DNA of 64,000 nt from a bacterium (GTDB taxonomy: Bacteria > Bacteroidota > Ignavibacteria > UBA10030): positions 36,383-100,382 of the forward strand of contig JAZDJN010000027.1 in NCBI GenBank assembly GCA_043803945.1, in the 5' to 3' direction. The position numbers and the translations under genes were made by a program. The notes under the pieces were generated by a model. It did no database searches and had not been told where the DNA came from. It saw only the letters and a list, made by a program, of their open reading frames with translations. Shown here in pieces: positions 1-14,506 of this stretch (its first letter is position 1; each line of letters starts with the position of its first letter).

Positions 1-1
1 A

Positions 2-1045
2 CTCAATCGTGAAACAACGTTTCTTAAGGCACAGCAATCCTTATTCGGTCGATCGTCGATTTCAGATCAGGATGAATCTGTTGAAAGGATAGAGGAGTAT
101 TCATCGATTGCGGATAGTGTTTCTGAGATGGTTCTTGATTCGAGTTCCTGCTTTTTCGATACAATCATAGACAATCTCACCGAAGCTGCCGATGCTGCAC
201 GCGACTCGTTGGAGTCCGTCTATTGGCTTCTGGAGGAGGATCAACAGAAGGAGAATGATCTTCTTGCAGAGCGCCAGGAAGCGATTGCAGACAGTCTTGC
301 CGAGGTGAAGGAACATGCTTCGAGACTTGTTGTTTCGATGTACTATAATCACCATGCAACGTATCGCGGCCGCGATAATGGGATTAGCTATAATTCATTT
401 GTTCCAACCCTCACGTATACTCATCGATCGGGATTTTCTCTTGGGCTGATGGGAATCATTTTCCCCAATCACCCTGAGCGTCGTTATGAAGGTACCGGAG
501 TAAGTCTGGGTTACTCGGGAGAAATTGCTGCTGTGGTGAGTTCCAGCATTACCTATACGCATTTTTGGTTTGGCAAGAACAGTGCGGAACCGCGCTCCTA
601 TATGAACGATAACCTCTGGGCTGATTTGGATATAAACCTCGGCAGCTTTTCCATGAATCTTGCATCAACGTATGATATAGGATCAAAATCCGAATTCAAT
701 GGTATCCTTACTTCGATGGTTCTTCTTGATCTTGGTAAACCATTCGGAGCAGACAGGTTCGTCGGCGGCCCGGTGCTTTCGGCGCTCTACGGGCAACAGG
801 ATGCAACCTTAACGAGTGTTCGATTAACCATCTTGAAAAAGAGAACGATCTCCACAACCGTCACCGAAGAGAAAAAAGTGTTTGGAGTTCTCTGCTATGA
901 GCCGATGTTGATCCTCAGTTATCAGAAGGGGGGATTCAATCTGAAACCGTCGCTGGTATATGAAATTCCATTAAATGTTGTCGATAATAGCACCTCTCAT
1001 CCCTTTCTCAATGTGACCTTGGAGATGAGTTATACCATCCGTTAA
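2..1045 (+). CDS. hypothetical protein, possibly outer-membrane beta-barrel (5' partial, runs off the window edge)
   Basis: Frame is open from position 2 through the ORF-track start at 128. C-terminal two-thirds has alternating aromatic/hydrophobic beta-strand patterns ending ...LEMSYTIR. Confidence 0.5.
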   Translation, partial: LNRETTFLKAQQSLFGRSSISDQDESVERIEEYSSIADSVSEMVLDSSSCFFDTIIDNLTEAADAARDSLESVYWLLEEDQQKENDLLAERQEAIADSLAEVKEHASRLVVSMYYNHHATYRGRDNGISYNSFVPTLTYTHRSGFSLGLMGIIFPNHPERRYEGTGVSLGYSGEIAAVVSSSITYTHFWFGKNSAEPRSYMNDNLWADLDINLGSFSMNLASTYDIGSKSEFNGILTSMVLLDLGKPFGADRFVGGPVLSALYGQQDATLTSVRLTILKKRTISTTVTEEKKVFGVLCYEPMLILSYQKGGFNLKPSLVYEIPLNVVDNSTSHPFLNVTLEMSYTIR

Positions 1046-1184
1046 AGATGATCTGCGGGTAAAATCGATCGTGCGCTTTCAGGTTTATGCACTGAACAAT
1101 AGAAGATCGGCACTGAAAAAATTGTTGAGCACGATTAATCTTCGTGCTTGTTGAAAAACTATTCTTTATCGAAAGAGGCTCACT

Positions 1185-1706
1185 ATGAAAATCAGAATGT
1201 TGCTTGCGGTTCTTTTGGTACTCTGCTTTGCACAGATGCTTGTTGGTCAGCAATCGAATCCCGTCTGGGAGAAGTGGCAGTATTTGCTCGGCACATGGAT
1301 TGGTGAAGGAAGCGGTCAACCGGGACAAGGTAGCGGCTCATTTACATTCCAAACTGATCTTAGCGGCTCGGTCATCATCCGGAAAAGTCAAACAACCTTT
1401 CCTGCGACCAAGGATAAAGGAGCAAGCCTTCATGAGGATTTGTTAATTATCTATTTGGATTATTCTGGAGTGCCTTCAAAAGCAATTTACTTCGATAATG
1501 AACGACACGCCATCAACTATACCGTTATGTATCGTGATCAAGTGATCGTGTTCACCAGTGAAAGTATCAAAAATGCTCCACGATTTCGGTTATCCTACGA
1601 GCCGATTGATCGCAATATCGTGAATACCAAATTTGAGATCGCCTCGCCTCAGAATCAGGATGAGTTTAAAACCTATATCGAAGGGAAATCCAGAAGGAAA
1701 GAATAA
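1185..1706 (+). CDS. secreted small beta-barrel protein (nitrobindin/FABP-like, tentative)
   Basis: Signal peptide MKIRMLLAVLLVLCFAQ, then WQYLLGTWIGEGSG motif typical of this fold; RBS-like AGAGG upstream. Confidence 0.5.
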   Translation: MKIRMLLAVLLVLCFAQMLVGQQSNPVWEKWQYLLGTWIGEGSGQPGQGSGSFTFQTDLSGSVIIRKSQTTFPATKDKGASLHEDLLIIYLDYSGVPSKAIYFDNERHAINYTVMYRDQVIVFTSESIKNAPRFRLSYEPIDRNIVNTKFEIASPQNQDEFKTYIEGKSRRKE

Positions 1707-1812
1707 TATCAGCTTGGAGTTGTTTGGCTAATTTATCAATGGTCGGAAATGCAGTTTGGAACTTGCATCTCATTCCGGAAATAGGTATCTATTACAGGGT
1801 GGAAAAAAATCG

Positions 1813-2163
1813 ATGAATAGAAAATTCACACAGCATATTGCAGCCAGCGTCCTTCTGCTCTACCTCTGTGTGGGTTTCCTTGGTAGCCTCGAGGTGATAT
1901 CGAATCTGTTCCGGCCTCCGACACCGGTCACCTCTTTCCGGGTATCGAAACCTCTCCCGCCAACATCATGCAAAATCATCTGGACTCAGTATAAGCATAT
2001 CCCGAGCAGTCCAAAGGTGGTGGTTCAAACCCAGGCGATACTCACTGATCCAATTTCGATCGAACGAAAAGAATTTTCTACTCTAGTCATTCCTTTTCAG
2101 GTTTCAGGATATACATCTCCTCAACATTCTTCCGGCTCTTCTCGCGCTCCACCTTCAGCATAA
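1813..2163 (+). CDS. small protein with N-terminal hydrophobic segment and C-terminal RAPP motif (DUF2946-like / candidate arrest peptide)
   Basis: ATG at 1813 gives MNRKFTQHIAASVLLLYLCVGFLG..., a Pro/Ser-rich linker, and ...SSRAPPSA-stop. Confidence 0.6.
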   Translation: MNRKFTQHIAASVLLLYLCVGFLGSLEVISNLFRPPTPVTSFRVSKPLPPTSCKIIWTQYKHIPSSPKVVVQTQAILTDPISIERKEFSTLVIPFQVSGYTSPQHSSGSSRAPPSA

Positions 2164-2320
2164 CATTTCTCAAATCAATACTGTAGACGAATCTTAGAAC
2201 TCAAGTCTGCTCGTGTTCTGATAAATTCATTTATACGAATTCATTTCATGCGATGAGGAGCAGAAGAGAATCCTCTCTTGTTCTAAGTTTCTTTCCACTG
2301 AAGTAAGAAGGGTGAGTGTC

Positions 2321-3544
2321 ATGATTCTATGGCATCGACGAGCTCTTACAAAAAGCACGCAATTGGCAAACAATGTACTGCGTCCATTTCAGGAGTTCTT
2401 TCGAATTGAATCGAGTGCCGGGATTCTTCTGTTCATATGCACGGCAGTCGCATTGTTTTGGGCCAACTCACCGTGGAGTACAACCTACAGTTCCTTCTGG
2501 CAGTACAGCCCTGCGGTTGATCTCGGCAGATTCAAGTTCTCGAAATCCCTTGAACACCTTGTGAATGATGGCTTGATGGCCATCTTTTTTCTCGTTGTCG
2601 GATTAGAGATCAAACGGGAATTGTTAGTTGGAGAAATCTCTTCCTTGAAGAAAGCAGCACTGCCCGTGATTGCCGCGATTGGCGGGATGTTAGTACCAGC
2701 CTCGCTATTTCTCTCGTTCAATTCCGGCACTGAAGGTTCGCACGGATGGGGTATCCCCATGGCAACCGATATTGCCTTTGCCATCGGTGTTCTCTCGCTG
2801 CTCGGAAACAGAATACCTCTTGGATTGAAAGTCTTTCTGACAGCCCTGGCGATCATCGACGACCTAGGTGCCGTTCTGGTAATTGCCTTTTTCTACACCA
2901 GCGAGATTAATGGCTCGGCGCTTATTGTAGCAGGAATGATCTTCCTTTTGCTTCTCCTTCTCAATTACAGAGGAATCCGATTGATTTCGATCTATGTGGT
3001 ACTTGGATTCTTCCTTTGGATTGCACTCTTAAAATCAGGCGTGCATGCGACGATTGCGGGGGTCCTGCTAGCCGCAACGATTCCGGCCCAGTTCAACCGG
3101 TCATTGGATCAGGAGGGAGAGGGGACCTCGCCGCTCCAAAAACTGGAACACACGCTTCATCCATGGGTAAGCTATTTCATCATGCCGGTCTTTGCTCTTG
3201 CCAATGCCGGGATTGTGGTGAGTGCCGGCTTCTTATCGGCCCTGACACATTCTATTTCAGCGGGAATCATTCTTGGACTGGTCATCGGCAAGCAGGTGGG
3301 GATAACACTCTTCGCATGGTTGGCGGTGCGCTTGAAGCTTGCCTCGCTGCCGGCACATACCCGGTGGATTCAACTCTATGGAGTTGGCTGGCTGGGCGGT
3401 ATCGGTTTTACAATGTCGTTGTTCATCGCCACTCTGGCATATGGTGAGTCAGAGATACTGGCAAATGCAAAATTGGCGATACTAATGGGTTCGGTCATTG
3501 CTGGATTTGGAGGATGGGCGCTGCTGCGCTCTGTACGATCATAA
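2321..3544 (+). CDS. nhaA: Na+/H+ antiporter NhaA
   Basis: Motifs NDGLMAIFFLVVGLEIKRE, GWGIPMATDIAFA, ALAIIDDLGA, GIGFTMSLFI. Confidence 0.97.
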   Translation: MILWHRRALTKSTQLANNVLRPFQEFFRIESSAGILLFICTAVALFWANSPWSTTYSSFWQYSPAVDLGRFKFSKSLEHLVNDGLMAIFFLVVGLEIKRELLVGEISSLKKAALPVIAAIGGMLVPASLFLSFNSGTEGSHGWGIPMATDIAFAIGVLSLLGNRIPLGLKVFLTALAIIDDLGAVLVIAFFYTSEINGSALIVAGMIFLLLLLLNYRGIRLISIYVVLGFFLWIALLKSGVHATIAGVLLAATIPAQFNRSLDQEGEGTSPLQKLEHTLHPWVSYFIMPVFALANAGIVVSAGFLSALTHSISAGIILGLVIGKQVGITLFAWLAVRLKLASLPAHTRWIQLYGVGWLGGIGFTMSLFIATLAYGESEILANAKLAILMGSVIAGFGGWALLRSVRS

Positions 3545-3596
3545 TAATATTTCAACTTACAACGATTTTTTACTTCGAAAATAGAAGGGTTGGCAT

Positions 3597-3806
3597 ATGA
3601 AAAAGAATTTTCAATTGATAGACATTGTCTTCAGTCTCATAGTTTCTTTCGTTGTGAGCCTCATTCTCTGCGTTGTTTATAGTTTACAAACTGATGAGTA
3701 TGTCCATATTCATTGGGAGCTCTGTGCAGTTCTTGCGTTGCTCATCGGAGTTGGAATTCTTTGGAATCAACGGCGCGACAGAAAAGCCCAGGTGAAAAAG
3801 CAATAA
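3597..3806 (+). CDS. small two-TM membrane protein
   Basis: 69 aa, two hydrophobic stretches and a basic C-tail; co-oriented within the cluster. Confidence 0.55.
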   Translation: MKKNFQLIDIVFSLIVSFVVSLILCVVYSLQTDEYVHIHWELCAVLALLIGVGILWNQRRDRKAQVKKQ

Positions 3807-3910
3807 CCATGTGCAGTAGTTAGAAAGATCGTTTCATAACGAGGCTCGAACAACCAAGCATTTTATCCTGTGCTTACAGGCAATCAACATTTAAGCGAGA
3901 TGAGGTATCT

Positions 3911-4582
3911 ATGCCTAGTCAAATAGAAGCAACCATCAATTCCCTAAAATCTCTTTGGGAACAACTCCTCCAATTCTTACCTCAATTGCTTATCAGTCTT
4001 GGCATTATGGCAGTCGGATGGTTCATTGCATTATTGATACGGAAGGGAGTTATTGTCCTCCTTAAACTCCTCCGAGTCGATAAAATGGCAGAAAAAGCTG
4101 GGCTCGAAGGTATTCTCTTAAAAGGTGGTGCTCAGTATTCGACAGTGAATATCCTGGCAAATCTTTTCTATTGGTTCCTGATGTTGGGGCTAACACTCTC
4201 CGTCCTTCATAGCCTCGGATTAGACACGGCAAAGGAAGTGTTCAATCGGATTATTCTCTACATCCCGAATGTCATTGCAGCTCTCTTTATACTTGTTTTT
4301 GGAATGTTTCTGGCAAAACTCTTACGGGGAGCACTGCTCACATACCTTACGAATGTCAGAATTTCAGGTGCAGACTTTGTGAGCACGGTAACGTATTGGG
4401 CGATCGTTTTTCTTGTCTTATCAAGCATGCTTCAACAACTGTCGCTCGGTGGACAATTGTTGATCTCGGCGTTCGAAATAGCCTTCGCAGGATTGTGTCT
4501 CGCACTCGCCATAGCCTTTGGCCTGGCAGGAAAAGAGTGGGCTACTCAAATTCTGGAGAAACTCTGGAGAAGCAGTCGTTGA
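3911..4582 (+). CDS. CmpX-like membrane protein (conserved TM-helix family related to small mechanosensitive channel N-termini)
   Basis: Repeated FLPQLL / YIPNVIAALFILVFG units; C-terminal ALAIAFGLAGKEWA motif; GAGG RBS. Confidence 0.8.
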   Translation: MPSQIEATINSLKSLWEQLLQFLPQLLISLGIMAVGWFIALLIRKGVIVLLKLLRVDKMAEKAGLEGILLKGGAQYSTVNILANLFYWFLMLGLTLSVLHSLGLDTAKEVFNRIILYIPNVIAALFILVFGMFLAKLLRGALLTYLTNVRISGADFVSTVTYWAIVFLVLSSMLQQLSLGGQLLISAFEIAFAGLCLALAIAFGLAGKEWATQILEKLWRSSR

Positions 4583-4637
4583 TGATACTCAATTATCATT
4601 GCGGGAGTGTCTAATTATACGATAGGATGGTGTAATT

Positions 4638-6905
4638 ATGAAGATTACCGTTCGTCTTATTATATCGCTTTTCATAGCGGCCGCCTTTGTTGCTGCTGTG
4701 TTTTCCTACCTTCAGGTTCAGAATGAACGAGATCTCCTTGTTCAAGACCTAACGAGCCGGGCGCGTGTCCTTGGTGAAAGTATGGAGGAAACCATCAAGG
4801 AATACATTCAAGCGAATGCAATGGCAAAACTTAAAAGCACGATATATCGATTCGGCAGAAGGACAAAACTCCTTGGAATTGCAGTTTATGATAATCAAGG
4901 GGCGGGTATTGCTTTCAGTCCAGCGCTGGATTCTACATTCTCGACAACTCCCCCGGAAGTCTGGGAATCAATCACAAGCCTAAAAGCTGTCAGTGGAATG
5001 AAGGAGGTGAGCGGTAATACTGTCCATTTATATGTTCATCCCCTGATGGCTGACTCGTCGATTGTTGGAGCGTTACTGTTCTACCATGATGTTTCCTTTA
5101 TTGATGCAAAGCTCCAGGGGATCTGGCAGACAAACTTTATTCGTCTGCTTACGCATTTTTTCCTAATTATCGTGACGACCATTCTTGTCGTACGATGGAG
5201 TATCAAAGGCCCCATTGCACAAATTGCCCATTGGATGCGCGGTTTACGAACGGGAAAATCTTATCAAACAATCCCAATTCCACGGGGTGATCTTCTTGAA
5301 CCGTTAGCCAATGAAGTCTCACTGCTTGCAAAAAGCCTCACACAAGCACGAACCGCTGCTCAGGAAGAGGCACGTCTGCGTATAGAAGCCGAGTCACTTT
5401 GGACCTCAGAACGGCTAAAGGAACATGTCAAAATTGAGTTAAACGGGAAAAATCTTTTCGTTATCTCCAACCGCGAGCCCTATATGCATATGATAATGGG
5501 AGGAACGATTCAGTGTATCGTTCCGGCGGGCGGATTAGTCACTGCCCTTGATCCGATTCTGCGTGCGTGCGGGGGTATATGGATTGCCCATGGGAGTGGC
5601 ACTGCTGACAGAGAGACTGTTGATATGCAGGATCGCGTTCAGGTTCCACCAGAGGATCCGACATATTCATTGCGACGAGTCTTTCTCACCAAAGAGGAGG
5701 AAGAGGGATACTATTACGGGTTCTCCAACGAAGGGATATGGCCGCTCTGTCATATTACACACACTCGTCCCACATTTAAATTACAAGATTGGGTTCATTA
5801 TCAAAATGTCAATGAGCAATTTGCAAAAGCGTTGTTAGAAGAAATCCGAAATGAAGAATCTCCCCTGATTTTGATTCAGGATTATCATTTTGCTCTCCTT
5901 CCATTATTGATTAAATCCAAACGCCCGGATGCGAGGGTGGCGATCTTCTGGCATATTCCCTGGCCCAATCCCGAAGTGTTCGGCATTTGTCCCTGGAAAC
6001 AGGAATTGCTGCTTGGTTTACTCGGCGCGGATCTTATCGGGTTTCATATCCAATTTCACTGCAACAATTTCCTTGAGACAGTGGATCGTTACTTAGAATC
6101 AAAAATCAACTGGGATCAATTTTCCGTTGAGCGGCATGGACAACTCACCTCTGTGCGTCCATTTCCTATCAGTGTCGCTCATCCGTATGAGTCTGAAATC
6201 AGCACTCAACGGCCAGTCTCTATCGCTACCAAAGAGTCCTTACTCAAAAAATCTGGAGTTGTTGCTCCCTTCATGGCGTTGGGCGTCGATCGGATAGACT
6301 ATACAAAGGGAATCGTTGAACGATTCCAGGCAGTGCGGCGATTCCTGGAAAAATATCCAGAATATGTTGGGAAGTTTACATTCGTTGAACTCGGAGCACC
6401 GAGCCGTACGCATATCAAACGCTACCACGACCTGATCGCTGAATTGGATGAAACAGTCGATCGCATTAATTGGTCGTTTCAAGCTAAAAATTGGAAACCG
6501 ATCGTTTTTCTCAAAGCCCACCATGATCACAAAACCATCGGCGATTATTATCGGGTTGCCGATGTGTGCATGGTCACTTCTCTTCATGACGGGATGAATC
6601 TCGTTGCCAAAGAATTTATTGCAACACGCACCGATGACGATGGTGTTCTCATTCTCAGTCAATTTGCAGGGGCGGCACGGGAGCTACCCGATGCACTCAT
6701 CGTTAATCCGTACGATATTGAAGAAATGGCTGAAGCGCTTCATCTGGCATTGACGATGGAGAAAAAAGAACAACGTGAACGAATGCAAGAGATGCGAACG
6801 GTGGTGAAAGAAAGAAATGTTTACCGGTGGGCAGCGAACATTATAACAACCCTCACGCACTTGCGGATGCCCAAGCAACCTGCAGCGATGGAGTCACAAC
6901 AGTGA
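4638..6905 (+). CDS. otsA: trehalose-6-phosphate synthase (GT20) fused to an N-terminal TM-extracytoplasmic sensor-TM-HAMP module
   Basis: GT20 motifs VISNREPY, GGLVTAL, IQDYH, FWHIPWP, GVDRIDYTKG, DGMNLVAKEF from ~aa 270. The N-terminus has two TM helices, a Cache/PDC-like loop and a HAMP-like segment. Confidence 0.93.
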   Translation: MKITVRLIISLFIAAAFVAAVFSYLQVQNERDLLVQDLTSRARVLGESMEETIKEYIQANAMAKLKSTIYRFGRRTKLLGIAVYDNQGAGIAFSPALDSTFSTTPPEVWESITSLKAVSGMKEVSGNTVHLYVHPLMADSSIVGALLFYHDVSFIDAKLQGIWQTNFIRLLTHFFLIIVTTILVVRWSIKGPIAQIAHWMRGLRTGKSYQTIPIPRGDLLEPLANEVSLLAKSLTQARTAAQEEARLRIEAESLWTSERLKEHVKIELNGKNLFVISNREPYMHMIMGGTIQCIVPAGGLVTALDPILRACGGIWIAHGSGTADRETVDMQDRVQVPPEDPTYSLRRVFLTKEEEEGYYYGFSNEGIWPLCHITHTRPTFKLQDWVHYQNVNEQFAKALLEEIRNEESPLILIQDYHFALLPLLIKSKRPDARVAIFWHIPWPNPEVFGICPWKQELLLGLLGADLIGFHIQFHCNNFLETVDRYLESKINWDQFSVERHGQLTSVRPFPISVAHPYESEISTQRPVSIATKESLLKKSGVVAPFMALGVDRIDYTKGIVERFQAVRRFLEKYPEYVGKFTFVELGAPSRTHIKRYHDLIAELDETVDRINWSFQAKNWKPIVFLKAHHDHKTIGDYYRVADVCMVTSLHDGMNLVAKEFIATRTDDDGVLILSQFAGAARELPDALIVNPYDIEEMAEALHLALTMEKKEQRERMQEMRTVVKERNVYRWAANIITTLTHLRMPKQPAAMESQQ

Positions 6906-7741
6906 AGAATCCGGTCTATCTATTTTCAGGACGACGAGAATCATGGGACGCGATCGCCCGGAAATTACGCGCTGCTTCCGGCATAGCTCTATTTCTTGAT
7001 TACGATGGAACATTGACCCCGATCCGGCGGACGCCATCAGCGGCAGTTCTTACACCGGACGTAAAGAACATTTTACAGCAGTTGGCACAACTTCCGGATG
7101 TGTGCGTCGCTATCGTCACCGGCAGGTCAATGAGGGATATCCAGAAACTCGTTCGTGTAGATACCCTCGGATTTGCCGCAAATCATGGTTTCCATATGGA
7201 TATCAATGGAATTGACTGGATTCATCCTCAAGCTGTATCTCAGAAGAAAGTACTGTCACGACTTCACTCGATTCTTTGCAACGCACTTGCAGCATTTCCT
7301 GAACTCTATATTGAGAACAAACAATTCACATTAAGTATTCATTATAGGAATGTTGCTGCACATCATGTCCGTTCCCTCAAAGCACTGGTTTCGAAAACCG
7401 TACACTCATTTAATCCGACACTACAAATAACTCGCGGAAAGAAAATATTGGAAGTAAGACCTCAAATACCATGGGGAAAGGGAGATGCTGTTTTAGCAAT
7501 GTTAAATTTGAGTAAGACTTCTCAACGCCGGATCCCGCTGTTTATCGGCGATGATACAACAGATGAGGATGTCTTTCGAGCCTTGCGTTCGAAAGGGATA
7601 ACGATACGGGTGGGAAGGGCGCGATCTACAAATGCGCAATACTATGTGAAGAGCGTCAAGGAAGTTCACGATATACTTCGATTGATCATCTCTCTCAGAG
7701 AGAATCGTTCTATCCGCACTCGTTCACGTCAGAAGAAATAA
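6902..7741 (+). CDS. otsB: trehalose-6-phosphate phosphatase (HAD family)
   Basis: FLDYDGTLTPI, VTGRS, GKKILEVRP, GKGDAV, IGDDTTDEDVF. GTG start at 6902 overlaps the otsA stop (GTGA). Confidence 0.93.
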   Translation: MKNPVYLFSGRRESWDAIARKLRAASGIALFLDYDGTLTPIRRTPSAAVLTPDVKNILQQLAQLPDVCVAIVTGRSMRDIQKLVRVDTLGFAANHGFHMDINGIDWIHPQAVSQKKVLSRLHSILCNALAAFPELYIENKQFTLSIHYRNVAAHHVRSLKALVSKTVHSFNPTLQITRGKKILEVRPQIPWGKGDAVLAMLNLSKTSQRRIPLFIGDDTTDEDVFRALRSKGITIRVGRARSTNAQYYVKSVKEVHDILRLIISLRENRSIRTRSRQKK

Positions 7742-7756
7742 GGAAGGAACATCAGC

Positions 7757-8965
7757 ATGCATGCATTAGAAGAATACCGGGACATTGTCGGTGATGATGT
7801 TATCGCAGAAATCTATCGTTTAGCTCGTCCGCTATATGGTAAGAAAATCCTTCATATCAATTCCACCTACTATGGAGGCGGTGTTGCAGAGATCCTCTAT
7901 TCACTTGTGCCACTTCTGAATGCCGCCGGTCTTGATGCCGACTGGAGAATGTTGCGAGGTACTCCGGAATTTTTCAACGTCACAAAGAAATTCCACAACG
8001 CTATTCAGGGTGAATCGATCCGAATGACCGACATCAAGGCAGCGCTCTATTCCGAGAATAATCAGGACTTTGCATCGTATTGCAAGATCGATGCCGATTG
8101 TGTGATCATTCATGATCCTCAACCATTACCACTGATCCGTTTTTATAAGAAACGCCAACCCTGGCTCTGGAGGTGTCACGTTGATCTCTCGCATCCAAAC
8201 CAAGATCTCTGGCACTTTCTCAAAGGGTATATCCTTGCCTATGATGGTATCATTGTCTCCGATGAACAGTATGTTCAAAAAGATCTTCCGATGAACTATA
8301 CTATCATCGATCCTGCTATTGATCCACTCTCCTCGAAGAATAGAGTTATCCCGGAGGACCTAATAGAACGGACGCTTCAGAAGTATGATGTCCCCACTGA
8401 TAAACCATTTATTACTCAAATATCAAGATTTGACAAGTGGAAAGATCCTGAAAATGTTATTGAAGTATATAAACTTGTGCGGAAGGAATGCGATTGTCGG
8501 TTAATACTGTGTGGAAGCATGGCAACGGATGATCCGGAAGGCTGGGAATATTTCGAGCGAACGAGGAAGGCAGCAGGATCGTACCTTGATAATAAGGATA
8601 TCATATTGATTACAGTAGAGGACAATATTTTGGTCAATGCACTCCAGAGTAAGTCGACCATCATTCTTCAAAAATCGATACGGGAAGGATTCGGGCTCAC
8701 GGTCACTGAAGCGCTCTGGAAGGGCAAGCCAGTAGTTGCATCGAATGTTGGCGGTATTCCCCGGCAGTTGATTGATAATAAAACGGGATTTCTCGTGGAG
8801 CCGCTAGATATCCAGGGTTGTGCCGATATCGTGAGTACGATTCTAAAGAATCCAAAGTTGGGTCAGGCACTTGGTGTGAATGGTAAAGAACACGTTCGAA
8901 AAAACTTTCTCATCACCCGGCATGTGATTGATGATCTAAAGCTGCTCAATAAAATATTGAGTTGA
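7757..8965 (+). CDS. treT: GT4 glycosyltransferase, trehalose synthase TreT-like
   Basis: HINSTYYGGGVAEIL, IHDPQP, WRCHVD, QISRFDKWKD, QKSIREGFGLTVTEALWKG. Confidence 0.85.
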   Translation: MHALEEYRDIVGDDVIAEIYRLARPLYGKKILHINSTYYGGGVAEILYSLVPLLNAAGLDADWRMLRGTPEFFNVTKKFHNAIQGESIRMTDIKAALYSENNQDFASYCKIDADCVIIHDPQPLPLIRFYKKRQPWLWRCHVDLSHPNQDLWHFLKGYILAYDGIIVSDEQYVQKDLPMNYTIIDPAIDPLSSKNRVIPEDLIERTLQKYDVPTDKPFITQISRFDKWKDPENVIEVYKLVRKECDCRLILCGSMATDDPEGWEYFERTRKAAGSYLDNKDIILITVEDNILVNALQSKSTIILQKSIREGFGLTVTEALWKGKPVVASNVGGIPRQLIDNKTGFLVEPLDIQGCADIVSTILKNPKLGQALGVNGKEHVRKNFLITRHVIDDLKLLNKILS

Positions 8966-8983
8966 GATTGACTGTGGTGGACC

Positions 8984-9514
8984 ATGAATTATTTTGAACG
9001 TTTTTACAAACACAAGAAATTTTTTGATTTCCTGGACGAGCTAAAGATAAAGCAGCGGCACTGGATTATCTTATCGATTCTCGTTGCAAGCGCCGATTTC
9101 CTGAGTGGCAACAAGATCCAATTTTCTATCCTCTACCTCTTGCCCATTGCTTTGGCTGCCTGGTTTGGTGAACGTCGTGAAGCATTGATTCTTGCTTTGC
9201 TACTTCCCTGTTCTCGATTGATCTTCCGAGCACAATGGGATATGCCATGGTTCGTTCTCGATTCAATGATAAATCTTCTCATTCGCATTCTTGTCTTTAT
9301 CATTATTGCATATTTAATTTCTTTCATAAAAGAGCTACACGTGTTGAGGGGATTATTGCACATCTGTTCGTATTGCAATCGGATCAAAAATGAAGATGGA
9401 ACCTGGATCTCCGTGCAGGAGTATATCGTTGATCATTCAGAAGCTCTCTTGAGTCATGGCATATGTCTTGAGTGTGGTTCAAAACATTTCAGTCGACTGT
9501 TTCCGAACAAATGA
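8984..9514 (+). CDS. membrane protein with C-terminal CxxC...CxxC Zn-ribbon-like domain
   Basis: About four TM helices, then LRGLLHICSYCNRIK...W...SHGICLEC. Confidence 0.7.
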   Translation: MNYFERFYKHKKFFDFLDELKIKQRHWIILSILVASADFLSGNKIQFSILYLLPIALAAWFGERREALILALLLPCSRLIFRAQWDMPWFVLDSMINLLIRILVFIIIAYLISFIKELHVLRGLLHICSYCNRIKNEDGTWISVQEYIVDHSEALLSHGICLECGSKHFSRLFPNK

Positions 9515-9693
9515 GATACTTTTTCGACATGAGTGATTTGACCAATAAGGATTGAGCATATAGTTAACATTACTTGATAAATGCTGAATTTCTTGATCTC
9601 AAAAACTAGGTACTATTCTCCGGTTTGCAGATGTAATGATTCCTTCTCATATTCAATTCACGATCACTAATTCCAGTAAAAGTTGGAACATTG

Positions 9694-11685
9694 ATGCCAG
9701 TGGGATCAAAACGATTTCAACTCCCAAAATTATTAATGCGCCTCACTGCGCCTCCCAGAAACGCGGTAGAGAAGTGGTTTTATCATGGAGGAAAAGTTGA
9801 TGCAAAATCCCGAAAGAGCGAAACGCATCCTTGGTACAGAGTACTCTGGCTCACCGGTGTTGATTATTTTTCTACGTTAGGATACCAACCGGGAATTGCC
9901 CTCCTTGCTGCAGGAGCTCTTTCTCCTTTGGCAACGGCTCTTTTAGTAATTGTCACCTTGTTTGGTGCGTTGCCAGCCTATCTGCAGGTAGCACAACGTT
10001 CGTATGCCGGTCAGGGATCCATCGCGATGCTGGAGAATCTGCTTCATGGATGGAAGGGTAAAATCTTCGTTCTGATTCTCCTGGGATTTGCCAGTACAGA
10101 TTTCGTTATTACGATCACACTCTCTTCTGCTGATGCAGTCCAGCATCTCCTCGAGAATCCACTTATCGGTCCCTTCTTTGGCGATGCACGCCTGACATTA
10201 ACAAATATCATGCTGGCAATCCTTGCCGGTGTATTCTTAATGGGCTTTACTGAGGCAATCAGAATTGCTGTTTTTGTTACAATACCATACCTGGCATTAA
10301 ATGCCATTGTCATACTCCGGTGCATCGTTGAGATCATCCAGCGACCGGAACTATTCACCAATTGGTCAGCAATGCTCTCGCTTCACGGTGATCCAATCAT
10401 GATCGTTCTGGTCTGTGCCTTGATTTTTCCGAAGCTCGCTTTGGGACTTAGCGGTTTTGAAACCGGTGTCGCAGTTATGCCGCTCGTATCCTCAGGAGGG
10501 GGTGTCTCCCGGGGTCAGATACCATTCGTCAGAATCGCTGCAACAAAAAAGCTACTTACCACGGCCGCTCTGATCATGAGCGTATTTCTTATCTCTTCAA
10601 GTTTTGTAACGACCCTGCTTATTTCGGAAAAAGAATTCGCCCTCGGAGGAATAGCAAGTGGAAGGGCATTGGCATTTCTGAGTCATACCTATCTTGGACA
10701 TACTTTTGGAACGTTGTACGATATTTCCACGATCGCGATTCTCTGGTTTGCGGGTGCCTCAGCAATGGCGGGCTTACTCAACGTGATTCCCCGATATCTG
10801 CCGCGGTTTGGTATGGCGCCGCGATGGGTAGCCTACACCCGGCCCCTGGTTATTGTGATCTTTATTGTAAGCCTTATCGTGACAAAAATCTTCAATGCGA
10901 GTGTCGAAGCTCAAGGTGGAGCATATGCCACTGGAGTTCTTGTTCTGATGCTTTCTGCAGCGGTCGCCGTTGCTCTCGAGCTGAAGCGTGAAGCGATGGA
11001 TAAAGCAGAGTATCTTCTGGGAAGAATTAAAAAAGTTCTCTTAAGCGGATATTTTTGGGTTATTACGTTGATTTTCACATTCACACTTATTGATAATATT
11101 TTCGTTCGCCCGGATGGAGTGATCATTGCAAGCCTGTTTATTATTTCGATTATTGCACTGGGTGCATTGAGCCGCTACATCCGACAGACAGAATTACGCG
11201 TGGAAAGTATGTCGCTTGTGGATGAGGAGTCACTAGCCTTGTGGCAAAAAATTAAAGGGAAGAAGGTTAATCTTGCACCGTTAAAAGATGAGAATCAGGA
11301 CTCTATAGTCAAAAAGCAGAGTGAAATTAGCAGACATTACAAAGTTCAGGGTCCGATAGCATTCGTTCATGTCCATCTTCTCGATAACCGCAGCGAATTT
11401 CTGACTCCGTTGCAATTGAAAATTCGTAGGCGAGGAAAACATTACATGATTAATATCTTTGGCGCTGTAGCTGTCGCGAATAGTCTCGCCTATCTGAGCG
11501 AACAGATGGATCCAAAAACCATCTTCATTGGTCTCACAGGGCAGAACCTCATGACTCAATCACTAAACTATTTTATTTGGGGAGAAGGCGAGGTGGGACT
11601 TTCGGTGTACACCATTCTTGTTCGATATTGGGAATGGATCGGTGAAGAAAATGAACGGCCGCTAATTTTCTTAATGAGTGAATGA
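9694..11685 (+). CDS. APC-superfamily transporter with C-terminal soluble domain
   Basis: LTGVDYFSTLGYQPG, LALGLSGFETGV, AQGGAYATGVL; about 12 TM segments plus a cytoplasmic tail. Confidence 0.85.
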   Translation: MPVGSKRFQLPKLLMRLTAPPRNAVEKWFYHGGKVDAKSRKSETHPWYRVLWLTGVDYFSTLGYQPGIALLAAGALSPLATALLVIVTLFGALPAYLQVAQRSYAGQGSIAMLENLLHGWKGKIFVLILLGFASTDFVITITLSSADAVQHLLENPLIGPFFGDARLTLTNIMLAILAGVFLMGFTEAIRIAVFVTIPYLALNAIVILRCIVEIIQRPELFTNWSAMLSLHGDPIMIVLVCALIFPKLALGLSGFETGVAVMPLVSSGGGVSRGQIPFVRIAATKKLLTTAALIMSVFLISSSFVTTLLISEKEFALGGIASGRALAFLSHTYLGHTFGTLYDISTIAILWFAGASAMAGLLNVIPRYLPRFGMAPRWVAYTRPLVIVIFIVSLIVTKIFNASVEAQGGAYATGVLVLMLSAAVAVALELKREAMDKAEYLLGRIKKVLLSGYFWVITLIFTFTLIDNIFVRPDGVIIASLFIISIIALGALSRYIRQTELRVESMSLVDEESLALWQKIKGKKVNLAPLKDENQDSIVKKQSEISRHYKVQGPIAFVHVHLLDNRSEFLTPLQLKIRRRGKHYMINIFGAVAVANSLAYLSEQMDPKTIFIGLTGQNLMTQSLNYFIWGEGEVGLSVYTILVRYWEWIGEENERPLIFLMSE

Positions 11686-11699
11686 AAAGGATGTGAGAC

Positions 11700-11834
11700 A
11701 TGCATGATATAGCACCAATAATTCTTTTTGTCGGCTGCCTGGTGTTTCTTGCACATTTTTTTGTCCTTGCGTTTGAACGAACCCGTGTGCCCGACGTGCT
11801 ATAACTTATCATGATTGGCCTATTTATAGTATAG
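11700..11834 (+). pseudogene. N-terminal remnant of a cation:proton antiporter (CPA1/NhaP-like)
   Basis: Hand translation MHDIAPIILFVGCLVFLAHFFVLAFERTRVPDVL*LIMIGLFIV* matches the TM1-RxPxVL-TM2 start of CPA antiporters; internal TAA at 11802-11804. Confidence 0.6.
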
Positions 11835-12086
11835 TGGGGATGCGGATGATTGTCGGATAACGAAGCGGTTCAACCGTGAACCTGCTGCATTACTGTTTCG
11901 ATATGGGTTTCGCTGCGCACTGAGCAAATAGAAGGTAAACAATTAAAAATTCTCCAATTAGCTTGGTAGAGGCATAGGAATATCATTTATGCCACATGAC
12001 CATCGAGCTAATTCAATTGTCCATCGACTCTTCTTTAATATTTTACTAACTTTGCTTTGGAAAAGAAGCATAGAATCGGGTGTGAA

Positions 12087-12800
12087 ATGATTCTTCCAAA
12101 TTTCATTCTCAAAAGCGTAATTATTCTCATCCTGCATGTTGCCATCGCCGCACGGGCCGGACAGGAACAGTATCTTCGCGAACGCACTATGATGGTACAA
12201 ACTCAAATTGTGGAGCGCGGTGTTCGCGATACCTCCGTCCTGCGGGCTCTTCGAACTGTCCCGCGTCATCTGTTTGTTCCGGCTGAACAGCAGCAGAATG
12301 CATATCAGGATTCTCCTCTTCCCATCGGATATAACCAGACCATCTCCCAGCCCTACATTGTCGCATTGATGACTGAACTCATCAAGCCGCAACCATATTT
12401 CCGTGTGCTGGAAGTTGGAACCGGATCCGGTTACCAGGCTGCAGTTCTTGCCGCACTTGTCGATAGTGTCTTTAGCATTGAACTTCTCCCGGAACTGGCT
12501 ACTTCTGCAGCGACACGATTGAAGCGGCTAAATATTCGTAACGTAGTTGTACGGCAGGGAGATGGCTACCAGGGCTGGCGTGAGCATGCGCCATATGATG
12601 CAATTCTGGTGACAGCAGCGGCTGATGAAGTTCCTGCTGCGCTGATCGACCAGCTCAAGGAAGGGGGCAGAATGATCATTCCGGTTGGATCAGCAGGGTC
12701 GGTTCAGGAGCTTATGCTCATTGAGAAGAAGGGGAAAAAAGTTGTATCGACGTCTATCATACCGGTTCGATTCGTTCCTCTCATCCATCCTCGTAAGTGA
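12087..12800 (+). CDS. pcm: protein-L-isoaspartate O-methyltransferase
   Basis: VPRHLFVP, QTISQPYIVALM, VLEVGTGSGYQAAVL, APYDAILVTAAA, VRFVPL. Confidence 0.96.
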   Translation: MILPNFILKSVIILILHVAIAARAGQEQYLRERTMMVQTQIVERGVRDTSVLRALRTVPRHLFVPAEQQQNAYQDSPLPIGYNQTISQPYIVALMTELIKPQPYFRVLEVGTGSGYQAAVLAALVDSVFSIELLPELATSAATRLKRLNIRNVVVRQGDGYQGWREHAPYDAILVTAAADEVPAALIDQLKEGGRMIIPVGSAGSVQELMLIEKKGKKVVSTSIIPVRFVPLIHPRK

Positions 12801-12845
12801 TTCCTCGCTTAATACCTACTGGTAGGAGTATTAATAACAGGGGAA

Positions 12846-13113
12846 AAAGTGATCCCAAAGTGACTTTGTTTGGGATCTGTAACGCGGAATCAATTTACAC
12901 CGAATAGTAGATCCCCGATAAATACATTCGGGGAACACTAATGAGTTGGGAAACAACAAGCAAAGGAAAGTGATCCCAAAGTGACTCTATTTGGGATCTG
13001 CTAAATGGAAATGAATTGCACCGCATCGTAGATCCCCCACCTTCGCATCGCTACGGTGGGCAGGCCGATAGAAGCATTCGGGAACACTAATGGGTGAGGA
13101 ACCAACAAGTAAA
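12846..13113. repeat. imperfect ~121-bp tandem duplication of REP-like hairpin units between convergent genes
   Basis: GTGATCCCAAAGTGACT..TTTGGGATCTG with hairpin starts at 12851 and 12972; GTAGATCCCC..CATTCGGG(G)AACACTAATG in both copies. Confidence 0.85.
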
Positions 13114-13141
13114 AAGCAGCAAGAAGTAAATTTACTTTTCT

Positions 13142-14506
13142 CTAAAATCTTGGCGGCAGGCTTGCCTTCCATCTCCAATAATAATATGCAGGAATACCGA
13201 GAAGAATAATTCCCAATCCAAAGAGCGCATCACGAGGATCTTCAAACAGAGTGTTTCCAACGAGATAGAGAGAGAAAAGGATGAAGATTATCGGAGTGTA
13301 TGGATATCCCCATGTCGCATACGCTCTCGGAAGCTCTGGCGATCGCTTACGGAGGATCAGCACCGCACCCGCTGCCATCGCATAGAAGATCCACGATGCA
13401 AAAATCACATATGTGAAGAGTTGATCAAATGTACCAGAGAGCACCAACAGGCATGACCAAACGCCCTGCGCGATCAGCGAAGGTATCGGTGTGTGAAATC
13501 TTGGATGCACCGAAGCCATGATCTTTGGAAAAGAATTATCGATACCCATCGCATAATAAATCCGTGCACCGGAAAGGATAAAGCCATTATTGCTGCCAAT
13601 CGTTGCTATCATTACAGTGATGGCTGCAATGGATGCTCCGGCTGATCCGATCAGCTTTGTTGCTGTATCGGCTGCAACCAGGGTTGACTGTCCAATCTTC
13701 TCAAGTGGAAGTACTCTCAGATATGTGATATTCACCAGAGTGTAAATGACAAGAACGATAAGCATCGAAAGAATAATTGAGCGGGGAATATTCTTCTGGG
13801 GATTCTTAACTTCTCCGGCGACGTAGGTGATTTCAATCCAGCCATCATACGACCAGAGCACAGCTACCAGTGCGATGCCGAACGGTCCTAAAAAACTCGA
13901 AAAGGAGAAAGGAATATTCGTAAGTGATAAATCCAGGCTCTGAGCGTTGGTCATAGTAAATCCCAGGACGATGAGGGCAACGATGATGAGCAATTTGAGG
14001 ATCGTGAATCCATTTTGCACGATAGCACCGAGTCTAATCCCGAAGCAATTGATTGTTGTCAGGAGAATGATTGACCAGATGGCGATAATTTTTATTCCCA
14101 TGGCAGAAAGAGGAATGAAATATCCGAGATATGTGGCAAAGCCGACCGCAACTGCAGAGATTGCCGCTGTCAGGATAACCGTGAATGCTGTCCAGCCGTA
14201 GAGAAATGCCGAAAGAGGGCCATATGCTTCGCGCAGGTAAACATATTGACCACCAGCGTTCGGATACATCGCTCCCAGTTCTGCCACCGAAAGAGCTCCG
14301 AACAGGCTTATGATGCCGCCGAAAATCCAGACCAGGATAATTGAGGGGGAGGAGGGAAGGATTAACGCAATGGATGCAGGGACAAGAAAAATTCCCGATC
14401 CGATCATACAGCCAACATTCAGCATGGTTGAATCGAGAAGTGAAAGCTCACGTTTGAGTTCAGGAGTGTCGGCTGATGGAGAAGCTTCCTTCGGTATCAA
14501 ATTCAC
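13142..14506 (-). CDS. amino acid permease (APC/LAT family)
   Basis: LKRELSL, GCMIGSGIF, AELGAMYPNAGGQYVYL, WSYDGW, GEVKNPQKNIPR. Confidence 0.93.
   Translation of the reverse strand: MNLIPKEASPSADTPELKRELSLLDSTMLNVGCMIGSGIFLVPASIALILPSSPSIILVWIFGGIISLFGALSVAELGAMYPNAGGQYVYLREAYGPLSAFLYGWTAFTVILTAAISAVAVGFATYLGYFIPLSAMGIKIIAIWSIILLTTINCFGIRLGAIVQNGFTILKLLIIVALIVLGFTMTNAQSLDLSLTNIPFSFSSFLGPFGIALVAVLWSYDGWIEITYVAGEVKNPQKNIPRSIILSMLIVLVIYTLVNITYLRVLPLEKIGQSTLVAADTATKLIGSAGASIAAITVMIATIGSNNGFILSGARIYYAMGIDNSFPKIMASVHPRFHTPIPSLIAQGVWSCLLVLSGTFDQLFTYVIFASWIFYAMAAGAVLILRKRSPELPRAYATWGYPYTPIIFILFSLYLVGNTLFEDPRDALFGLGIILLGIPAYYYWRWKASLPPRF

Follow-up and report, generated by a model that had tools for sequence, protein, structure and literature searches.

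A candidate receptor-type trehalose-6-phosphate synthase joining a predicted WalK-type Cache-HAMP module to OtsA in a member of the Ignavibacteria

A stretch of 64,000 nucleotides from a bacterium of the Ignavibacteria (Bacteroidota, UBA10030; assembly GCA_043803945.1, contig JAZDJN010000027.1, positions 36,383 to 100,382 of the forward strand), referred to here as the window, carries at positions 4638 to 6905 (+) a single ATG-started open reading frame (ORF) of 755 amino acids (aa) without an internal stop, which ends in a TGA at 6903 to 6905. The gene encodes a sensor-fused trehalose-6-phosphate (T6P) synthase, in which a two-pass membrane module stands in front of a GT20 (OtsA) catalytic domain. 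Judging from sequence comparison and structure models, we regard it as probable that the protein is a dimeric receptor-enzyme in which an envelope, osmotic, or ionic signal gates T6P synthesis. Switching of the enzyme by the sensor is a reasonable reading of the fixed helix lengths and the conserved relay between the two parts. An earlier note on this DNA (the original prediction) had called the architecture uncharacterized, which fits the literature: among publications on T6P synthases (TPS) or OtsA with a transmembrane (TM), HAMP, or Cache part, or bound to membranes, no description of a sensor-fused design was found.

In the proposed mechanism, the protein would be a homodimer in the inner membrane with its N terminus inside, and a WalK-type Cache domain would face outward between the two TM helices (TM1 and TM2). 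TM2 would run into a HAMP four-helix bundle, the AS2 helix of which would continue as a dimeric coiled coil, followed by a fixed 22-residue linker and then by the first strand of the GT20 domain. In the cytoplasm, this domain would join UDP-glucose and glucose-6-phosphate to give T6P, and the coupled OtsB would release trehalose. A change in the envelope would shift TM2 and the HAMP bundle, the rigid linker would relay the movement, and the activity of the enzyme would be altered, with the relay perhaps acting directly either on glucose-6-phosphate binding or on the mutual facing of the two catalytic domains. The relay could reach the glucose-6-phosphate site because Arg279, the counterpart of Arg9 in Escherichia coli OtsA, lies two residues past the strand that the linker feeds. 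The stimulus would most likely be a stress (osmotic, ionic [Na+/Li+], or dehydration) and not a single small ligand for the whole family, and the outcome would be fast, posttranslational control of compatible-solute synthesis.

Architecture of the fused protein

Kyte-Doolittle hydropathy in 19-residue windows gave strong peaks only at residues 7 to 25 (2.52) and 167 to 185 (2.34) of the 755-aa protein, placing TM1 at aa 7 to 25 (4656 to 4712, +), within model helix 2 to 58 and in the predicted dimer interface, and TM2 at aa 166 to 187 (5133 to 5198, +). Residues K2 and R6 precede TM1 and the motif NERD follows it, and R186, K190, R201, R204, and K207 follow TM2; this charge distribution indicates an N-in topology, so that residues 26 to 165 would lie outside and the HAMP and GT20 parts in the cytoplasm. 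A word-indexed search with residues 1 to 270 retrieved 143 proteins at an E value of ≤0.001, and the homologue counts given here come from the best 120 of them. All 120 carry the GT20 family PF00982, which rules out an assembly artifact as the source of the fusion. Exactly two hydrophobic peaks ahead of the catalytic SNRE motif were present in 114 of the 120, and the spacing of the window protein in 106. Moreover, the N-terminal module and GT20 were contiguous and in one frame in 79 of 80 related genome loci, these being the best 80 of at least 594.

Residues 26 to 165 (4713 to 5132, +) are predicted to form a single extracytoplasmic Cache (PDC) domain of the WalK type, with a long helix a1, a helix a2, and a five-stranded sheet; the assignment is based on a fold search, on VIA-align comparisons, and on the family profile. 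An AF2 model of residues 1 to 272, built from a 33-row alignment of N-terminal segments (272 to 275 residues) from related genome loci, had a mean predicted local distance difference test (pLDDT) score of 86.4. Along the chain, helix 2 to 58 is followed by a short helix, five strands interspersed with two small helices, helix 153 to 205, loop 206 to 220, helix 221 to 254, and a last helix at 257 to 267. Searched against the PDB with Foldseek, this model gave 59 matches at an E value of ≤0.001, headed by the full-length integrative model of WalK (E value, 1.6e-11; 265 columns) and followed by sensor domains of WalK (4ywz_B; E value, 2.1e-07), DctB, DcuS, CitA, and Tlp3. VIA-align gave Z scores of 16.2 for the WalK Cache domain 4ywz_B (root mean square deviation [rmsd], 2.3 Å; 136 of 146 residues aligned), 14.8 for CitA 2j80_B (rmsd, 2.5 Å; 119 aligned), and 13.6 for DcuS 3by8 (rmsd, 2.9 Å; 126 aligned), and the complete N-terminal module matched the WalK integrative model 9a5d_A with a Z score of 16.6 over 271 residues. 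The family profile also found the WalK Cache domain 5is1_A by sequence (E value, 3.1e-4), and the NCBIfam model for the WalK histidine kinase gave a weak match to residues 1 to 246 (E value, 2.8e-6). When 45 diverse full-length relatives were scanned singly against Pfam, sCache_3_2 was matched in 12 (best E value, 2.2e-6), SMP_2 in 14, CHASE8 in 6, and dCache_3 and dCache_1 in 5 each.

Conservation is uneven along the outside domain. The Cache core has a majority frequency of 0.43 in the diverse alignment A2, where only the HAMP connector is lower (0.34). A conserved face of helix a1 comprises Q26, E30, L34, L38, R41, and L45, of which R41 and L45 are predicted contact residues, since residues 37, 41, and 44 to 49 of this helix fall in the predicted dimer interface, and a further conserved cluster is the HDxSYI stretch adjoining TM2. 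On these comparisons, the putative transmission path is conserved, but no ligand pocket is. Three fusion variants of 913 to 931 aa (P0045, P0046, and P0121) have a doubled outside region, with an anchor-to-anchor distance of 304 to 306 residues in P0045 and P0046; these variants gave weak dCache_3, dCache_1, and Cache_WalK matches, and P0121 gave a subthreshold match to the Pfam HAMP family (E value, 0.0011).

Directly after TM2, aa 188 to 240 (5199 to 5357, +) have the layout of a divergent HAMP domain, in which AS1 carries P192 and G206, the connector is variable, and AS2 carries the invariant E226; the model places helices at 153 to 205 and 221 to 254 around the loop 206 to 220. In alignment A2, P192 never varies, and the conservation of G206 is 80% or more. 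The window genome, searched with the N-terminal profile, yielded three further places beside the gene itself, and the two that were inspected were both histidine kinases with a Pfam-validated HAMP domain. In the reference kinase from this genome, Pfam places HAMP at residues 158 to 208 (E value, 4.5e-11), and an hhalign comparison of TM2 and family residues 186 to 240 with the TM2-HAMP part of the kinase gave an E value of 9.5e-5, aligning Pro192 and Gly206 with the Pro and Gly of the kinase HAMP. The TM2-HAMP stretch of Tsr matched the family profile more weakly (E value, 0.033). The predicted HAMP is divergent, which explains why Pfam misses it. The signaling-helix-like coiled coil and linker helix follow at aa 241 to 272 (5358 to 5453, +) and include the invariant residues E244, W255, and L260. 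In the same hhalign comparison, the conserved ESLWTxERLK stretch past the coiled coil (family residues 252 to 262) aligned with the kinase segment ELVWTEFLGNVSHELRTP at the start of the phospho-acceptor helix, and it may have been retained from a kinase from which the fusion descends.

Spacing along the relay is close to constant. Among the 120 homologues, the distance from I155 to P192 (stalk and TM2) is 37 residues in 119, that from P192 to G206 (AS1) is 14 in all 120, that from E226 to W255 (AS2 and coiled coil) is 29 in 116, and that from W255 to S277 (linker) is 22 in all 120, whereas the HAMP connector from G206 to E226 measures 20 residues in 98 (range, 19 to 23). Length variation is thus confined to the connector and the outside domain. 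Of the N-terminal segments, the one comprising the coiled coil and linker is best conserved (majority frequency, 0.62 in A2), and in alignment A1, HAMP AS1 and GT20 are equally conserved (0.77 each).

In addition, an ESMFold2 prediction of residues 1 to 272 as a homodimer gave an ipSAE of 0.51 (median of three runs) versus 0.00 for the best control. Of 30 proteins solved as same-chain pairs, 20 reached this mark, as did 1 of 23 solved as single chains; these counts apply only roughly to a prediction made, as here, from a custom alignment. Contact agreement between the runs was at least 89%, the partner pLDDT was at least 74, and the predicted interface comprised TM1, TM2, helix a1, AS1, and AS2, with heptad-like contacts up to residue 252. 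Because sensor-kinase dimers have already been solved, this outcome may express no more than likeness to them.

The GT20/OtsA catalytic domain occupies aa 273 to 740 (5454 to 6857, +) and is recognized by PF00982, by the NCBIfam OtsA model TIGR02400, and by solved TPS structures. PF00982 matches residues 273 to 739 with an E value of 3.6e-118 (395.7 bits versus a cutoff of 32.5) and spans profile positions 3 to 471 of 473; the solved chains 6jbi_A (E value, 1.4e-76) and 1uqt_A (E value, 2.3e-69) also match, and the identity to E. coli OtsA (reference sequence from NC_000913) is 32.5%. A published passage (PMC1769515) lists Arg9, Trp40, Tyr76, Trp85, and Arg300 of the E. coli enzyme as glucose-6-phosphate binders and Gly22, Asp130, His154, Arg262, Asp361, and Glu369 as UDP-glucose binders. 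Ten of these 11 residues are identical in the window protein, where R279, G299, Y359, W368, D415, H439, R552, R590, D651, and E659 correspond to Arg9, Gly22, Tyr76, Trp85, Asp130, His154, Arg262, Arg300, Asp361, and Glu369, respectively, and all ten are invariant in the 45 relatives. Trp40 could not be placed, as the E. coli ORF has Trp at 39 and 42; position 39 corresponds to W315, which is invariant, and position 42 to H318 (His in 38 of 45). K557 is likewise invariant in all 45 relatives and aligns with E. coli Lys267, which we take to be an active-site residue, although it is absent from the passage of PMC1769515 consulted. In the full-length monomer model, R279 lies two residues past strand 1 (273 to 277), which is separated from the linker helix by a turn of four residues. 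The domain is complete; as part of the overall reading, it is probably catalytically competent and makes T6P.

Taken together, profile, fold, and conservation evidence backs the order of TM, Cache-like domain, TM, HAMP, linker, and OtsA set out in the original prediction, and the strings quoted there (GIAVYDNQG, LYVHPL, IVGALLFYHD, KGPIAQIAHWMRGLRTG, and GDLLEPLANEVSLLAKSL) are every one present in the translated ORF. Its two TM segments coincide with the hydropathy peaks, its intact GT20 domain with the PF00982 match and the ten identical binding residues, and the structure model gives the WalK-type Cache and the HAMP-like helix-loop-helix for which it had proposed a fold check.

Distribution, gene neighborhood, and riboswitches

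The original prediction had allowed that homologues may exist, which proved an understatement, since at least 594 loci in the genome collection carry a relative. The best 80 cover the query nearly end to end and are all records of metagenome-assembled genomes (MAGs), mostly labeled Acidobacteriota; the other labels were Elusimicrobiota, Thermodesulfobacteriota or Syntrophus, Gemmatimonadota, Omnitrophota, Planctomycetota, Methylomirabilota, Binatia, Patescibacteria, Bacteroidota, and Gammaproteobacteria. An unindexed search with residues 1 to 272 gave 825 clusters at 50% identity (E value, ≤0.001), mostly fragments without domain labels. In the phylum of the window genome, the module is rare and patchy, being found in 4 of 201 genomes, including the window genome, and in none of the 10 other genomes of its family. 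A GT20 domain of any kind above the cutoff occurred in 22 of the 201 genomes (24 rows), as an OtsA-OtsB fusion in 16 rows, sensor fused in 5, with a different 214-residue N-terminal extension in 2, and as a plain 511-residue ORF in 1. One genome of the same class (G193) has two sensor-fused OtsA copies on different contigs (L086 and L089).

A quick maximum-likelihood tree was computed for 63 GT20 domains, namely, 42 of 78 sensor-type domains after thinning, 16 from OtsA-OtsB fusions, and 5 others; 15 rows were left out (10 same-place duplicates and 5 partial), the root was set on E. coli OtsA alone, and the program warned of long branches. All sensor-type rows, including L034 with a shorter N-terminal part, fell into one group (SH-aLRT, 94), which had a long stem of 0.91 (support, 100) and the plain ORF L110 as its sister, and the OtsA-OtsB fusions were separate (support, 95). 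Across this sample of 63 domains, the pattern suggests that the fusion arose once, long ago, and has since spread widely. L110, from genome G113 of the same class, is a sensorless GT20 protein of 511 aa, 49% identical to the catalytic domain of the window protein, and may represent either the ancestral soluble form or a lineage that lost its sensor later. L105 and L106, from genomes G003 and G008 of the same phylum, have GT20 in 670-aa frames behind the other extension of approximately 214 residues; they are neither of the sensor type nor of the OtsA-OtsB type and are sister to L110 plus the sensor clade.

Immediately downstream of the fusion, otsB encodes a T6P phosphatase (6902 to 7741, +; PF02358; E value, 3e-51). 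Its likely GTG start at 6902 overlaps the stop of the fusion as GTGA, in a frame open from 6827, and the two genes are, on this arrangement, predicted to be translationally coupled. A TreT-like GT4 glycosyltransferase gene (7757 to 8965, +; PF21269 TreT_GT1, E value of 4.8e-56, and PF00534) begins 15 bp past otsB. A tblastn comparison of the 80 related loci placed an OtsB homologue close to the fusion in 39 and a TreT-like gene in 32, both of which are lower bounds because contig ends cut many loci. The fusion is the sole GT20 match in the window genome (5.54 Mb, 100% complete), and it was also the only GT20 in all five other fusion-carrying genomes checked.

Other neighbors in the window include an NhaA Na+/H+ antiporter gene (2312 to 3544, +; PF06965; E value, 3.7e-153) 1.1 kb upstream of the fusion and, 55 bp upstream, a gene for a 223-aa membrane protein (3911 to 4582, +; PF05552; E value, 7.4e-17), which consists only of two MscS-type "conserved TM helix" repeats without the MscS beta domain. 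A predicted membrane protein of 176 aa (8984 to 9514, +), encoded 18 bp past the TreT-like gene, has a C-terminal stretch with two Cys pairs (CSYC ... CLEC), and a multipass membrane protein of 664 aa is encoded at 9691 to 11685 (+); neither matched a Pfam family at an E value of ≤0.1. Homologues of the MscS-like protein were detected by tblastn in 1 of the 80 related loci and those of the NhaA, 176-aa, and 664-aa proteins in none, and all four were dropped as candidate functional partners. A promoter and terminator scan of positions 1600 to 12200 yielded no usable operon boundaries (26 promoter-like sites versus 18.9 ± 4.2 in shuffles and 9 terminator-like sites versus 9.4 ± 2.6), and cotranscription is inferred only from the gaps of 55, −4, 15, and 18 bp.

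Riboswitches of the nhaA-I (Li+/Na+) class lie upstream of the fusion, on its coding strand and above the gathering score, in 5 of 30 related loci scanned, four of which are labeled Elusimicrobia and one Planctomycetales. They occur at 5828 to 5874 in L020, 5915 to 5971 in L002, 5902 to 5952 in L023, 4845 to 4891 in L022, and 4813 to 4864 in L046, the last two approximately 1.1 kb upstream of the fusion, with a 360-aa gene of no assigned identity between in L046. The order in L046 is riboswitch, this gene, fusion, MscS, two OtsB copies, and a GH15 trehalase-like gene, and that in L020 is riboswitch, fusion, OtsB, DUF5752, and TreT-like gene. The DUF5752 gene of L020 (9038 to 9712), for which the window has no counterpart, may be a regular member of the cluster, because in many related loci otsB and the TreT-like gene stand about equally far apart. 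T6P synthase genes have been placed behind some Li+ riboswitches, with no sensor mentioned in the part of that report consulted (PMC9646797). Together with nhaA upstream in the window and MscS in L046, the riboswitches point to a salt or osmotic theme.

Gated enzyme or static anchor

Several observations weigh against a receptor-enzyme. No experimental or expression study of any family member was found, nor was any sequencing run or RNA data set listed for window positions 3800 to 9600. Pfam recognized neither HAMP nor Cache in residues 1 to 272 of the window copy at an E value of ≤10, where the matches were at chance level (SMP_2, 0.061; HU-CCDC81, 0.11; ASL_C, 0.18), and the HAMP matches in the 45 relatives were subthreshold (6 of 45; best E value, 0.0015); the Cache-like and HAMP-like labels of the original prediction therefore gain no backing from Pfam in this copy but are supported by family profiles and fold comparison. 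The hhalign comparison with the same-genome kinase reached a probability of only 58.7%, and it places Leu219 where the DE motif of the kinase has Glu. In the full-length monomer model, the HAMP region is of low confidence (pLDDT, 49 to 64), and the constant spacing could come partly from overall family similarity rather than from signaling. Conserved outside positions are mostly Gly, Pro, or hydrophobic residues or lie on the dimer face of helix a1, and the conservation analysis revealed no conserved polar pocket residues across the family and no evident shared ligand pocket. As for the genetic context, the upstream MscS-like and NhaA genes (1 of 80 and 0 of 80 loci) are not conserved neighbors, Rfam gave no match in window positions 1 to 14000 at an E value of ≤1 and thus no riboswitch at the window copy, and 25 of the 30 related loci scanned had none either. 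The last point against it, a low score with the NCBIfam OtsA model, concerns the product and is taken up with that question.

Some of this would suit the main rival, in which the N-terminal module only tethers and dimerizes OtsA at the membrane and carries no signal; trehalose would then be made, for instance, beside the membrane that it protects or beside a channel, and regulation would be purely transcriptional or by substrate supply. The poorly conserved outside domain with no conserved polar pocket, the divergent HAMP that Pfam misses in the window copy, and the riboswitch that already controls expression in some relatives all speak for such an anchor. However, a folded Cache domain and a HAMP domain are needless for mere anchoring, and AS1, AS2, the coiled coil, and the linker match the enzyme in conservation and keep a near-constant length in the 120 homologues where loops vary; in addition, the outside region is doubled in 2 of the 120 proteins, as is seen when true receptors diversify. 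A static anchor is hard to square with the conserved HAMP and the length-invariant coiled coil, and we consider it unlikely.

A second alternative keeps the receptor and changes its stimulus: by analogy with its nearest folds, the Cache domain might bind a specific small molecule or an envelope-derived fragment rather than answer an osmotic or ionic cue. Those folds are ligand-binding Cache domains (CitA and DcuS, which bind carboxylates) and WalK, the ligands of which are cell wall cleavage products, and the outside domain has diverged among lineages in the manner of ligand-binding domains. The family comparison showed no conserved binding residues, however, and the context is one of salt and osmotic genes (nhaA, MscS, and the Li+/Na+ riboswitches of 5 of 30 loci). 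The scarcity of conserved polar residues outside makes a single shared specific ligand doubtful; stimulation by a specific ligand in the window protein appears about as improbable as the anchor.

The identity of the product seems safer. The protein scored 432.1 bits with TIGR02400 (E value, 2.3e-129), under the equivalog cutoff of 564.85, and was also under the equivalog cutoff of the NCBIfam OtsA-OtsB fusion model (E value, 3e-149), indicating a separate GT20 subfamily rather than an equivalog as defined by NCBI. An enzyme making glucosylglycerol-phosphate or another sugar phosphate would be compatible with these scores, with the NCBIfam GgpS match of 295.1 bits, with the separate clade on its long stem, and with His318 in place of the Trp at E. 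coli ORF position 42. Yet OtsA is the best-scoring specific model, well above GgpS, the glucose-6-phosphate and UDP-glucose binding residues are identical, and the translationally coupled gene encodes a Trehalose_PPase, which also turns up in 39 of the 80 loci, all of which makes another product quite improbable. The original prediction had suggested that T6P could act as a signal besides being an osmolyte precursor. That T6P itself would be the output signal, as in plants and fungi, with the protein acting as a signaling receptor instead of a biosynthetic enzyme, finds no support here beyond that analogy and is the least credible of the alternatives, as the gene is the only GT20 of its genome, the coupled phosphatase would remove T6P at once, and the same operon-like array includes a further trehalose route, the TreT-like gene; the sole GT20 and its coupling to otsB instead indicate plain trehalose synthesis.

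We therefore favor gated T6P synthesis in a dimeric receptor-enzyme. A wider proposal, to which we would give even chances, is that the family constitutes a new output class of Cache-HAMP receptors. An envelope signal (osmotic, ionic, dehydration, or a ligand) would pass via the rigid coiled coil onto the acceptor-binding N-lobe of GT20, solute synthesis would be switched in seconds without a kinase, a second messenger, or transcription, and the protein would be the sole T6P route in hundreds of species from soil, peat, and groundwater.

Significance and comparison with known systems

Bacterial osmoprotectant synthesis is usually described as being under transcriptional control, together with ion effects on soluble enzymes. 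A receptor that directly gates the committed enzyme would represent a different control principle, in which production of a protective sugar is switched by an envelope signal without gene regulation, and a HAMP relay whose output, unusually, is a metabolic instead of a signaling enzyme. If so, it would bear on the survival of drying and salt by uncultured soil and peat bacteria. Though large and spread over many phyla, the family is annotated only as "trehalose-6-phosphate synthase." Moreover, sugar-phosphate formation offers a simple readout for studies of HAMP signaling, and the modularity of the protein suggests engineered sensor-controlled enzymes.

With the soluble OtsA/Tps1 enzymes of known structure (E. 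coli 1gz5 and 1uqt/1uqu, fungal 6jbi and 5hut, and Mycobacterium thermoresistibile 5jij), the window protein has the full-length GT20 domain and a downstream otsB in common, and with E. coli OtsA, it further shares 10 of 11 substrate-binding residues. It differs in the membrane sensor and relay of 272 residues added in front, with all the matching solved TPS chains aligning only from its residue 263 onward, and in that the fused GT20 domains form a clade of their own. The OtsA-OtsB fusions (PRK14501) found in the same phylum catalyze the same pathway step and are the form carried by 3 of the 10 other genomes of the window's family, these being the ones with a GT20 gene; in contrast to the window protein, they are soluble, have a C-terminal phosphatase extension of approximately 260 to 296 residues, and lack an N-terminal sensor, and their GT20 domains are only 33 to 37% identical to that of the window protein and fall in a separate clade (SH-aLRT, 95).

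The predicted front end most resembles that of WalK (YycG) of Firmicutes, which likewise consists of TM1, a single Cache domain, TM2, and HAMP, and the Cache crystal structures of which match with Z scores of 15.7 to 16.2, although the sequence identity between the two sensors is only 13 to 14%. Unlike WalK, the window protein lacks PAS, DHp, and ATPase domains as well as a response regulator step, and a metabolic glycosyltransferase stands at the end of its relay. TM-sensor-TM-HAMP fronts also occur in membrane adenylyl cyclases, diguanylate cyclases, and PP2C phosphatases, and such HAMP-linked signaling enzymes resemble the design proposed for the window protein, in which a sensor on the outside acts on a dimeric cytoplasmic enzyme via a HAMP relay and a fixed-length coiled-coil linker; they make second messengers or phosphorylation states, whereas the output of the window protein would be the precursor of a bulk metabolite. 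Thus, a known type of receptor front end and a known enzyme appear to be combined such that a metabolic enzyme would be the direct output of a receptor.

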